A stretch of DNA of 30,698 nucleotides, from the NCBI RefSeq assembly GCF_003334785.1, contig NZ_QOWV01000028.1. One strand, written 5' to 3'. A program made the position numbers and the translations under genes. The first letter of the stretch is position 1, and each line of letters opens with the position of its first letter. The stretch is from Escherichia coli (GTDB lineage Bacteria; Pseudomonadota; Gammaproteobacteria; Enterobacterales; Enterobacteriaceae). The notes beneath the pieces were generated by a model that searched no databases, was not told where the DNA came from, and saw only the letters and a program-made list of their open reading frames with translations. This document shows, in pieces, positions 26,714-30,698 of the stretch.

Positions 26714-28300
26714 ATGGCACATCCACCACGGCTTAATGACGACAAACCGGTTATCTGGACGGTATCTGTAACGCGCCTGTTCGAGCTGTTTCGCGATATC
26801 AGCCTCGAGTTTGATCACCTGGCGAACATTACCCCTATTCAGCTTGGCTTTGAAAAAGCAGTGACCTACATCCGCAAGAAACTGGCAAACGAACGCTGTG
26901 ACGCCATCATCGCGGCTGGCTCTAACGGCGCGTACCTGAAAAGCCGCCTGTCAGTGCCAGTTATTTTGATTAAACCGAGCGGCTACGATGTGTTACAGGC
27001 ACTGGCAAAAGCCGGAAAACTCACCTCTTCTATCGGCGTTGTCACCTATCAGGAAACCATTCCAGCGCTGGTGGCGTTTCAAAAAACCTTTAATTTGCGC
27101 CTCGACCAACGTAGCTACATTACCGAGGAAGACGCACGCGGGCAGATTAACGAGCTAAAAGCTAACGGCACCGAAGCGGTGGTCGGCGCAGGGCTGATTA
27201 CCGATTTGGCAGAAGAAGCCGGAATGACCGGAATTTTTATCTATTCCGCCGCCACCGTGCGCCAGGCGTTCAGCGATGCGCTGGATATGACGCGCATGTC
27301 GTTACGCCATAACACTCACGATGCCACCCGCAACGCCCTGCGTACTCGTTACGTGCTGGGCGATATGCTCGGTCAATCACCACAGATGGAACAAGTACGG
27401 CAGACTATTTTGCTGTATGCCCGCTCCAGTGCGGCGGTGTTGATTGAGGGGGAAACGGGGACGGGCAAAGAGCTGGCGGCCCAGGCGATTCATCGGGAAT
27501 ATTTTGCCCGCCACGATGCGCGACAGGGCAAAAAGTCGCATCCGTTTGTTGCCGTCAACTGCGGGGCGATTGCCGAATCGCTGCTGGAAGCAGAACTGTT
27601 TGGCTATGAGGAAGGGGCGTTTACCGGCTCGCGACGCGGAGGTCGCGCCGGGCTGTTCGAAATTGCCCACGGCGGTACGCTGTTTCTGGATGAGATTGGC
27701 GAAATGCCGCTACCTTTGCAGACCCGGCTGCTGCGGGTGCTGGAAGAAAAAGAGGTCACCCGCGTCGGCGGGCATCAGCCTGTTCCGGTAGATGTACGGG
27801 TCATTAGCGCCACTCACTGCAATCTGGAAGAAGATATGCAGCAAGGACGTTTTCGCCGTGATCTGTTTTATCGGCTGAGTATTTTGCGTCTGCAATTGCC
27901 ACCACTGCGCGAGCGGGTGGCGGATATTCTTCCGCTGGCGGAAAGCTTTTTGAAAGTGTCTCTGGCGGCGCTCTCCGCCCCATTTTCTGCTGCATTACGC
28001 CAGGGGTTACAGGCAAGTGAAACTGTGCTGCTGCACTACGACTGGCCAGGCAATATTCGTGAACTGCGCAATATGATGGAACGACTGGCGCTGTTTTTAA
28101 GTGTGGAACCGACGCCGGATTTAACGCCGCAGTTTATGCAACTGCTACTGCCGGAACTGGCGCGCGAGTCGGCGAAAACTCCCGCTCCACGCTTACTGAC
28201 ACCACAACAGGCACTGGAGAAATTTAATGGCGATAAAACAGCAGCGGCGAATTATTTAGGCATCAGCCGGACGACGTTCTGGCGGCGGCTGAAAAGCTGA
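26714..28300 (+). CDS. prpR: sigma-54-dependent transcriptional activator of the prp operon
   Basis: ORF track 532 aa from a TTG at 26702; canonical 528-aa PrpR begins [19 protein letters not shown] (ATG 26714); central AAA+ sigma-54 interaction domain (GETGTGKE Walker A, GAFTG motif) and C-terminal HTH. Confidence 0.94.
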
Positions 28301-28303
28301 ACT

Positions 28304-28335
28304 GCCGAATGCAGCGCGAACGCTTTATCCGGCAT
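28304..28335. repeat. Degenerate REP-like palindrome downstream of prpR (gccgaatgcagcgcgaacgctttatccggcat)
   Basis: Imperfect inverted repeat resembling REP in the convergent prpR-yahO spacer. Confidence 0.5.
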
Positions 28336-28397
28336 AAATTTCAATAGATGATCACCGATAAACTTACGCATCGGAGATGTTTACATAGGATTCAGAA

Positions 28398-28673
28398 TTA
28401 CTTCTTCTTATAAATATTTGCCGTGCCGTGGATCTTATTGTCAGTTTGACCGGAGGTCAGTACCAACACATCAGCCCCTTTTTCATCCGCTTTTTTGATC
28501 AAATCTTCTTTTGCATCTGCAGTCGACATTTCATTGCTGGTTGAAATATCACCTATTTTTTCATACTGCGATTCAACTTTTTCAAATTCCGCTTTGGTCA
28601 TCAATTCAGCGGCATAGACATTGGTAACGGCTAACGCTAACGCACCGACTAACATTTTAGAGATTATTTTCAT
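28398..28673 (-). CDS. yahO: small periplasmic protein of unknown function (YahO-like, predicted signal peptide)
   Basis: ORF 91 aa [30 protein letters not shown]...; hydrophobic N-terminus ending in the signal-peptidase motif VYA-AE; lysine-rich mature part; AT-rich gene. Confidence 0.88.
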
Positions 28674-28819
28674 ATTACGGCTCCAGAGTTGTTATCACAC
28701 TATCACCCACCCACATTATTGGGTTGATTAATAATTAGTTCAGTCAGGGCATAAACGCCAGTAACCGGAAATAAGACACTTTGTGATCTCTCTCGTACCC
28801 GATTATTTTTGGTAGAAAT

Positions 28820-29491
28820 ATGATGCAGTTAGTTCACTTATTTATGGATGAAATCACTATGGATCCTTTGCATGCCGTTTACCTGACCGTAGGACTGTTC
28901 GTGATTACTTTTTTTAATCCGGGAGCCAATCTCTTTGTGGTAGTACAAACCAGCCTGGCTTCCGGTCGACGCGCAGGGGTGCTGACCGGGCTGGGCGTGG
29001 CGCTGGGCGATGCATTTTATTCCGGGTTGGGTTTGTTTGGTCTTGCAACGCTAATTACGCAGTGTGAGGAGATTTTTTCGCTTATCAGAATCGTCGGCGG
29101 CGCTTATCTCTTATGGTTTGCGTGGTGCAGCATGCGCCGCCAGTCAACACCGCAAATGAGCACACTACAACAACCGATTAGCGCCCCCTGGTATGTCTTT
29201 TTTCGCCGCGGATTAATTACCGATCTCTCTAACCCGCAAACCGTTTTATTTTTTATCAGTATTTTCTCAGTAACATTAAATGCCGAAACACCAACATGGG
29301 CACGTTTAATGGCCTGGGCGGGGATTGTGCTCGCATCAATTATCTGGCGAGTTTTTCTTAGTCAGGCGTTTTCTTTGCCCGCTGTGCGTCGTGCTTATGG
29401 GCGTATGCAACGCGTTGCCAGTCGGGTTATTGGTGCAATTATTGGTGTATTCGCGCTACGCCTGATTTACGAAGGGGTGACGCAGCGGTGA
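28820..29491 (+). CDS. yahN: LysE/RhtB-family amino-acid exporter homologue
   Basis: ORF 223 aa MMQLVHLFMDEITMDPLHAVYLTVGLFVITFFNPGANLFVVVQTSL..., multi-pass hydrophobic protein; length matches YahN as I remember it. Confidence 0.88.
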   Translation: MMQLVHLFMDEITMDPLHAVYLTVGLFVITFFNPGANLFVVVQTSLASGRRAGVLTGLGVALGDAFYSGLGLFGLATLITQCEEIFSLIRIVGGAYLLWFAWCSMRRQSTPQMSTLQQPISAPWYVFFRRGLITDLSNPQTVLFFISIFSVTLNAETPTWARLMAWAGIVLASIIWRVFLSQAFSLPAVRRAYGRMQRVASRVIGAIIGVFALRLIYEGVTQR

Positions 29492-29507
29492 GCAGATAAT
29501 TTACTCT

Positions 29508-29753
29508 CTACGTAATCAACCTGATTTGCCGAATCACGGCCATCGGCGATGATAGCCCCCGTAATGCGTGGTCCTTATTTCCGATAAGTTTACTTGAGTC
29601 TTTAGCTTCCCATTTCAGCCCACTCTCCCCTGTGTGGGCTTTTTTCATTGGTCTGCCCCATCCTGAATAGCCAAACAATGGCAATGTTCCACTTTGCAGG
29701 GATGATAATAAGGGGATCTGATTCAGAAGAGTTTTGAAAAGTTGGACCGCCAT
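29508..29753 (-). CDS. yahM: small uncharacterized protein YahM
   Basis: ORF track 91 aa from 29783; the 81-aa form beginning MAVQLFKTLLNQIPLLSS (ATG 29753) has a GAGG Shine-Dalgarno 7 bp upstream, whereas the longer start has none. Only 16 bp separate its stop from the convergent yahN stop. Confidence 0.75.
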   Translation of the reverse strand: MAVQLFKTLLNQIPLLSSLQSGTLPLFGYSGWGRPMKKAHTGESGLKWEAKDSSKLIGNKDHALRGLSSPMAVIRQIRLIT

Positions 29754-30165
29754 CGAGGCCTCGAACCCCGTACCATACAACAATCCTGGTTGTCGTCTGC
29801 TCTTCCTGATGAGCTAATGGCGGTTTTTGATATGAGCCTTACAGCATATTTTCTGTCAGGCTTGAGTGCGATGCGTAAGATACAGAAAAGACCCCACACA
29901 AACATGATGGAATTATGATTTTTTTCATATGAATGTCAACCAACACATTCACAAAACATCTGCATGAGATCATTTTTTATACACCGCATGGCTGCGAAAC
30001 CACTACTGGTGCTTTTTTAAGCGAAGTGTCGCCGATCACAACAAAATATCGGCGAAAAAAGAGATGGAATGCCAGTTGGCATACAGATATACAGATGAAA
30101 TGATTACCTGCATTGCGATTCACTCTCAGGTGGAATAACAACTTGCAGGTGGAACCCTTTCTGAA

Positions 30166-30698
30166 CTAAAGAGTGTAGCGGATTTTAACGTGCTTATTTA
30201 CAGGATAATATCTGTCACCTAATTCCTGCACTCTATTAGATATCCATTCATTTAATCGCGCATCATCTCTGTATGTTTTTACGTCCAGAACAGAGAGCAA
30301 TAACATCACCAGTGATTCAGGAAAAACAGGGTAGATATTTTTTAAGTGTAATAATAATCCATGCGCAAGCGCCTGCTTAATGGGCGCGTCTGTCTCCGGA
30401 ATAGACGACATTTCGCGAAGCCATTTTTCCACATGCATACACTCTTTCCCTTTAGGGAAAATTCTCAGCAAAGGCATATGGTATTCAAGAAGAATACATT
30501 TGCAATCTGTTCGCACTGAATCGATAAACTGCACTAATTTCTTAAGCCCGGTAAAGCGTCCAGCCTGCACGTTTGCTTTAATATCAAGAAACGCATCATC
30601 CTGGTCATATACCCAAACTGTCTGAACCGCCCCGGAAATCCTGGAGACTAAACTCCCTGAGAAAGAGGTAAACAGGATGACTAAAAATACTCGTTTTT
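30166..30698 (-). CDS. yahL: uncharacterized protein, 5'-truncated by the window end (probably yahL)
   Basis: Reading frame is open from 30166 up to the window edge (I translated 30571-30698 by hand and found no stop); the ORF-track start at 30570 is just the first GTG in from the edge. AT-rich; identity as yahL is inferred from map position only. Confidence 0.6.
   Translation of the reverse strand, partial: KRVFLVILFTSFSGSLVSRISGAVQTVWVYDQDDAFLDIKANVQAGRFTGLKKLVQFIDSVRTDCKCILLEYHMPLLRIFPKGKECMHVEKWLREMSSIPETDAPIKQALAHGLLLHLKNIYPVFPESLVMLLLSVLDVKTYRDDARLNEWISNRVQELGDRYYPVNKHVKIRYTL

Follow-up and report, generated by a model that had tools for sequence, protein, structure and literature searches.

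Convergent Stop Codons of yahN and yahM

How do two convergent genes end their transcripts when only 16 bp lie between their stop codons? Gene order in the window (the whole stretch of E. coli chromosome analyzed here, 30,698 nt) is prpR (+), yahO (−), yahN (+), yahM (−), xtpA (−) and yahL (−). The ORF listing and the raw sequence place the yahN TGA at 29489–29491 on the plus strand, and the yahM stop at 29508–29510, which is CTA on the plus strand and TAG on the minus strand. A sequence-only reading of this DNA had proposed that such spacing leaves no room for two independent intrinsic terminators, and that the transcripts must either overlap as antisense 3′ ends or share a bidirectional terminating structure, with negative coupling of the two genes as a possible outcome. 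Between window positions 29400 and 29960 the K-12 MG1655 genome is 100% identical; a window position w converts to a K-12 coordinate K as K = 345649 + 29508 − w.

The spacer (29492–29507, GCAGATAATTTACTCT) is 16 bp long and contains neither a hairpin nor a U-tract. RefSeq places the end of yahM at 345649 and that of yahN at 345666 in K-12, the same 16-bp gap, which recurs in the RefSeq annotation of every other E. coli locus fetched; not one substitution was found in the spacer among nine diverse E. coli compared. The reported stop-codon distance thus agrees with the ORF listing, the raw sequence and the RefSeq annotation. It is no statistical anomaly, small or zero gaps being common between convergent E. 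coli genes; in MG1655, ExcludonFinder lists 165 convergent overlapping pairs whose intergenic distances average 95 nt (PMC12288877). That the two stops lie so near each other means little by itself, because the yahM ORF shows no sign of coding constraint, as described below.

Neither a simple consensus scan nor a relaxed hairpin scan found a terminator in the 16-bp gap on either strand, in accord with the claim that two independent ones would not fit between the stops. Transcription from each side must therefore enter the opposing unit.

Two other features of the window can be mentioned. Its last positions (~30605–30698, plus strand) belong to an end portion of an IS3-family element (IS1203-like, with many copies per genome). 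The element interrupts yahL; K-12 and strain 300709, which is 100% identical, have yahL intact. Between the prpR stop (28298–28300) and yahO lies a REP-like double hairpin resembling naRNA4 (28261–28334, minus strand; sub-threshold Rfam match of 28.6 bits). A published Term-seq 3′ end, K-12 346858(+), falls at window position 28299, on the prpR stop codon, so that the window contains a second convergent pair with overlapping ends.

The yahN Gene and Its Predicted Terminator

yahN (28820–29491, plus strand) encodes a LysE-family exporter annotated at 223 aa, with a match to TIGR00949 (E 6.6e-71). Among the nine E. coli its pN/pS is 0.14, with 13, 3 and 29 polymorphic sites at the first, second and third codon positions. 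YahN orthologs are widespread in Enterobacterales, and the neighborhoods of orthologs were fetched for comparison. Since the full-length orthologs are nearly all 210–215 aa long and begin MDPLHAVYL, the true start is probably the ATG at 28859 (MDPLH...) rather than the annotated one at 28820. A promoter-like site within the gene (29415–29442, plus strand, 9/12 matches) was considered as an sRNA promoter and rejected, its conservation being no higher than that of the surrounding coding sequence.

Downstream of yahN, a predicted intrinsic terminator was found at 29617–29646 on the plus strand: stem AGCCCAC/GUGGGCU, a 10-nt loop and U6. The stem (29617–29640) has 7 bp, five of them GC pairs, with a dG of −13.7 kcal/mol, so that a stable GC-rich stem-loop is followed directly by a U-tract on the transcribed strand, as expected of an intrinsic terminator. 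It lies 126–155 nt beyond the yahN stop, within the annotated yahM ORF, and a yahN mRNA that reaches it would cover 139 of yahM's 246 nt in antisense. A simple terminator scan of 28300–30698 yielded no match; its loop limit was 8 nt, which the 10-nt loop exceeds. The hairpin was exposed by the relaxed scan, together with a weak Rfam match driven purely by the terminator-like hairpin. A strict criterion demanded 7 perfectly paired bp with 5 or more GC pairs, a loop no longer than 10 nt and, directly downstream, 6 or more T among 8 nt. Under it the hairpin is the sole match within 500 nt downstream of the yahN stop, and such a site appeared in none of 2000 dinucleotide shuffles. Both strands of the whole 30.7-kb window hold two strict-criterion sites in total; the second is at 6484–6507 (plus strand).

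Comparison with other Escherichia ties this hairpin to yahN. In E. albertii (L017) the stems are identical, the loop differs at two positions, and the hairpin stands 135 nt after that species' own yahN stop. Homology between E. albertii and E. coli downstream of yahN runs through the hairpin and U-tract; identity then drops directly from ~93% to 20–50%, and homology resumes only at the tRNA-like element described below. L023, a divergent Escherichia lineage, has a hairpin of 100% identity. Not all strains keep the hairpin strictly, since in the Nissle/SCU-176/A33 group it is weakened (1-nt bulge, U5, dG −7.3). In Salmonella bongori and Citrobacter the sequence after yahN is unrelated. Having been kept together with yahN in E. 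albertii and L023, the hairpin appears to belong to yahN.

In this proposal, transcription of yahN would cross the spacer, continue through ~110 nt of the annotated yahM ORF, and end at the 7-bp stem (29617–29640) plus U6. We infer that the hairpin terminates yahN in vivo, and refer to it as a predicted terminator. The Term-seq supplements of Adams et al. (2021; PMC7815308), as far as covered here, list no K-12 coordinate of the form 34550x or 34551x, and two of their tabs give no curated 3′ end on the yahN strand in K-12 345390–346858; low expression of yahN in LB and M63 may account for this.

The Minus-Strand Transcript

The minus strand carries a sigma-70 promoter at 29912–29939 (TTGACA-16 nt-CATAAT, 11/12 matches) whose transcription start is at the xtpA ATG, 29905. 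xtpA itself (29723–29905, minus strand; K-12 b4845) is an ORF of 60 aa. According to the RegulonDB v12 record of Muto et al. (2022), xtpA is translated from leaderless mRNA. The cloning primer that Adams et al. (2021; PMC7815308) used for a “yahM 5′UTR” begins at the same ATG (ATGTTTGTGTGGGG), and a promoter with IHF repression has been reported (bioRxiv 10.1101/2025.05.13.653802).

Within the xtpA transcript ARAGORN identifies a tRNA-like element (29743–29823, minus strand), for which Rfam gave no tRNA match. It has 76% identity to tRNA-Ile, and its 3′ acceptor strand contains the start codon of yahM. The element is 100% identical in E. coli, E. albertii (L017 3402–3482), L023, and two other Escherichia lineages (L016 3176–3256 and L020 3167–3247). 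A 24-mer from it occurs in 4 of 100,044 species representatives, three of them named Escherichia and one a Proteobacteria metagenome-assembled genome; L023 is among these four. The XtpA frame is intact in all E. coli checked. Elsewhere the frame is stopped at codon 4 (L016 and L023) or codon 17 (E. albertii), or lacks an ATG (L020). Given that none of these lineages outside E. coli has an intact frame and that the RNA is invariant, this comparison suggests conservation of the tRNA-like RNA as the product, rather than of the XtpA peptide.

How does this transcript end? The relaxed scan found no intrinsic terminator on the minus strand from 29960 to 29200; a minus-strand hairpin at 29697–29681 was rejected as a terminator, being weak, with 6/7 pairs and a poor U-run. 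Two published signals fall on this strand. The first is a Term-seq 3′ end, K-12 345390(+), which corresponds to 29767 in the T-arm of the tRNA-like element (Adams et al., 2021; PMC7815308). In the parts of those supplements covered, it is listed three times, consistent with one entry per growth-condition tab, and it is the sole curated 3′ end that two tabs give in K-12 345390–346858. The second is a Rho termination region peaking at K-12 345585(+) (Adams et al., 2021, supplementary file 2), with a Rho score of 6.23 and p of 3.1e-33; reads upstream/downstream were 264/45 untreated and 480/510 with bicyclomycin (BCM) (PMC7815308). The converted coordinate, 29572 on the minus strand, is approximate, since the score is computed over 800-nt windows. 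Upstream of this release region lies a C-rich, G-poor stretch (29745–29706, minus strand) with 12 C and 2 G, a C/G ratio of 6, as a Rho-dependent terminator would have. On this composition, 29706–29745 is a plausible Rho utilization site.

Minus-strand transcription would thus start leaderless at the strong xtpA promoter (29905) and proceed across the tRNA-like element, with a stable 3′ end accumulating at 29767. With the C-rich stretch transcribed, Rho would end the transcript within the yahM ORF at ~29572, and ~17% of the signal would go on antisense into yahN unless Rho is inhibited.

An alternative would have the hairpin at 29617–29640 serve both strands, like the overlapping bidirectional terminators known from SEnd-seq: both RNAs fold, the polymerases pause, and they are released when they collide head-on. 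Being perfectly palindromic, the stem folds on both strands; it sits between the yahN stop and the xtpA stop, and the collision model needs no canonical U-tract (bioRxiv 10.1101/2022.10.23.513370). Such a terminator predicts both ends within ~30 nt of one another, with the 3′ half of yahM never transcribed. On the minus strand, however, the sequence after the hairpin (GAAAUGGGAAG) has no U-run. Neither strand has a curated Term-seq 3′ end at the hairpin in the Adams et al. data covered (PMC7815308). The minus-strand signal is BCM-sensitive and its Rho peak is ~45 nt beyond the hairpin, whereas the bidirectional class is described as Rho-independent. The defining pattern of that class, Rho-independent 3′ ends on both strands flanking one hairpin, was therefore not seen at the yahN hairpin, and we regard this explanation as improbable. 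The shared bidirectional structure offered by the sequence-only reading is not supported: the sole hairpin has a U-tract on the plus strand only, and the minus strand ends by Rho (PMC7815308).

yahM, Probably Not a Protein Gene

The annotated yahM ORF (29508–29753, minus strand; 81 aa) is part of a longest open frame of 29508–29783. Among the nine E. coli its pN/pS is 0.72, and its polymorphic sites are spread evenly over codon positions (9/6/6), with 3 indel columns. As out-of-frame controls, the two remaining frames of this region give pN/pS values of 0.59 and 1.13, so that yahM is within the range of non-coding frames; compared with 0.14 for yahN, purifying selection on the yahM frame was not detected.

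The frame is also broken in four independent ways within E. coli: codon 12 is a stop in O157:H7; CE10 has a −1 shift within a C-run and Ecol_656 one within the T-run; and Nissle, SCU-176 and A33 have a net shift of −2. Several of these are flagged “frameshifted” by RefSeq. No intact yahM ORF was found in E. albertii, L016, L020 or L023, where the frame is broken or the segment absent; intactness does not follow the DNA across lineages. A search of 5.8 billion proteins returned 61 clusters of YahM homologs, all the named ones being E. coli or Shigella and many truncated. Divergent YahM matches (59–65% identity) were discarded as coming from error-rich assemblies with fragmented genes (L004–L006), which were left out of the selection analysis. 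No NCBIfam family or Pfam domain is on record for YahM, and XtpA likewise has no NCBIfam family.

Could yahM still be a genuine E. coli small-protein gene, with its tight spacing the result of genome compaction and mutual termination of no consequence? The ORF is intact in many E. coli and is annotated as an 81-aa protein in most, a GAGG lies 5 nt upstream of its ATG, and yahM transcripts are reported to be induced on epithelial cells (PMC7649339). Yet both the GAGG and the start codon lie inside the T-arm/acceptor stem of the tRNA-like fold, and the Rho termination region falls inside the ORF, which fits weak or absent yahM translation. Together with the unconstrained substitution pattern, the several disruptions, the missing protein family and the loss of the frame in all four other Escherichia lineages, these points make a genuine gene very unlikely.

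We conclude from these comparisons that yahM is probably not a constrained protein-coding gene. Most likely it is a chance or very young ORF that spans the tRNA-like element's 3′ end and, in antisense, the yahN 3′UTR. The premise that two genes converge here accordingly finds no support on the yahM side, with its pN/pS of 0.72, its four breakages and its absence outside E. coli/Shigella. These results suggest that the minus-strand partner of yahN is the xtpA/tRNA-like transcript and not a yahM mRNA.

A Conserved Block in the yahN 3′UTR

Part of the sequence under yahM is conserved. The terminal block of the yahN 3′UTR, terminator included (29549–29647, plus strand, 99 nt), is 96% identical in L023, against 65% for third codon positions of yahN (P 7e-14), and 87% identical in E. 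albertii, against 60% (P 3e-9). L023 has the whole arrangement, with a yahN that is 86% identical. The last ~100 nt of the yahN 3′UTR are conserved far above the neutral rate. Indels of 1 nt occur within the block in both outgroups; what is constrained is therefore not a reading frame. In the proposed arrangement, the terminator and the ~70 nt before it would constitute this conserved 3′UTR.

In L016 and L020 the segment corresponding to 29527–29737 is deleted, conserved block and hairpin included, so that both are dispensable there. In these lineages the same stop triplet closes the xtpA frame, its distance to the yahN TGA being 16 bp once more. At 3131–3175 of both loci the xtpA-frame sequence abuts yahN across this gap, and no yahN terminator is recognizable. 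Their yahN neighborhood differs as well, being flanked by a gene of 878 aa and a convergent SNF2-family helicase gene.

One reading of this conservation is that the yahM ORF hides a conserved non-coding RNA, an sRNA derived from the yahN 3′UTR and acting in trans or as a cis-antisense to the tail of the xtpA/tRNA-like transcript, the conserved minus-strand product being the tRNA-like RNA rather than XtpA. We consider this a tentative idea, with the odds against it. No known RNA family in Rfam covers either the 3′UTR block or the tRNA-like element, the only matches being two that are sub-threshold, and a literature search on yahN plus Hfq found nothing relevant.

Probable Tail-to-Tail Overlap and Known Systems

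With yahN reaching ~29646 and the minus-strand transcript at least ~29572, the two transcription units would overlap tail to tail by roughly 75–140 nt. The picture as a whole, in which the spacer terminates neither strand, a hairpin ends the plus-strand transcript, Rho ends the minus-strand transcript and the two tails overlap, we judge to be likely. It agrees with the first option of the sequence-only reading, overlap of antisense 3′ ends, for the yahM ORF contains the predicted yahN terminator, and a published list has the pair as a convergent excludon (PMC12288877).

That listing derives from ExcludonFinder, which assigned yahM-yahN to the convergent excludons in 50% or more of 58 MG1655 RNA-seq samples (Sanmartin et al., NAR 2025, Table 1; PMC12288877). 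Given the 16-bp gap and a rule of 50% of mean coverage, an excludon is called here after very little read-through. The locus resembles other excludons of that set in being convergent, in its very short intergenic distance and in having the predicted terminator of one unit inside the other, as do 146 of the 165 MG1655 convergent excludons (PMC12288877). The neighboring units, yahN on the plus strand and xtpA/yahM on the minus strand, are transcribed towards each other, and the plus-strand terminator (29617–29646) lies inside the yahM ORF, downstream of the opposite-strand xtpA stop. The ExcludonFinder call is made from RNA-seq coverage only; here the minus-strand partner is suggested to be the xtpA/tRNA-like transcript trimmed by Rho.

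The yahN hairpin is like canonical intrinsic terminators of long 3′UTRs in its GC-rich 7-bp stem, loop, U6, and conservation with the upstream gene; it differs in that its 10-nt loop is longer than usual and that it stands 126 nt past the stop, inside an antisense ORF. With bidirectional terminators (Ju et al., 2019; Wang et al., bioRxiv 10.1101/2022.10.23.513370) the locus shares the convergent pair and the single palindromic hairpin. Unlike them it has a U-tract on one side only and a Rho-dependent minus strand, that class being Rho-independent. The minus-strand end resembles Rho termination of untranslated or antisense RNA (PMC7815308), with a C-rich stretch and a BCM-sensitive drop 130–170 nt later. 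Adams et al. class the Rho site as internal to the yahM ORF, while in the present reading it marks where the xtpA/tRNA-like transcript normally ends.

The overlap might also be a selected device that makes yahN and the xtpA/tRNA-like unit mutually exclusive, through transcriptional interference or RNase III cleavage of a 75–140-bp duplex. The excludon listing of the pair speaks for this (PMC12288877), as does the terminator embedded in the opposing unit, which the ExcludonFinder authors take as a stronger sign of function (PMC12288877). Conservation of the overlapped block exceeds the neutral rate, and the convergent xtpA-yahN arrangement persists in L016 and L020 without the body of yahM, again with a 16-bp gap. 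These same two lineages have nevertheless lost the block and the hairpin; in E. coli, Rho removes most minus-strand transcription before the yahN coding sequence; and validation of double-stranded RNA with p19 proved unfeasible for convergent pairs (PMC12288877). A selected device is in our estimation unlikely.

Tail-to-tail overlap at close convergent genes has been catalogued in E. coli, and the overlapping 3′ ends at yahM-yahN are an ordinary, already published case, so that the finding as originally stated matters little. What this locus offers is a correction of annotation: yahM is probably not a protein gene, the predicted terminator of yahN lies inside it, and the minus-strand partner appears to be the Rho-terminated xtpA/tRNA-like transcript. 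If the conserved block should prove to be a functional RNA, E. coli would have one more 3′UTR-derived regulator, and its uncharacterized y-ome one gene fewer.
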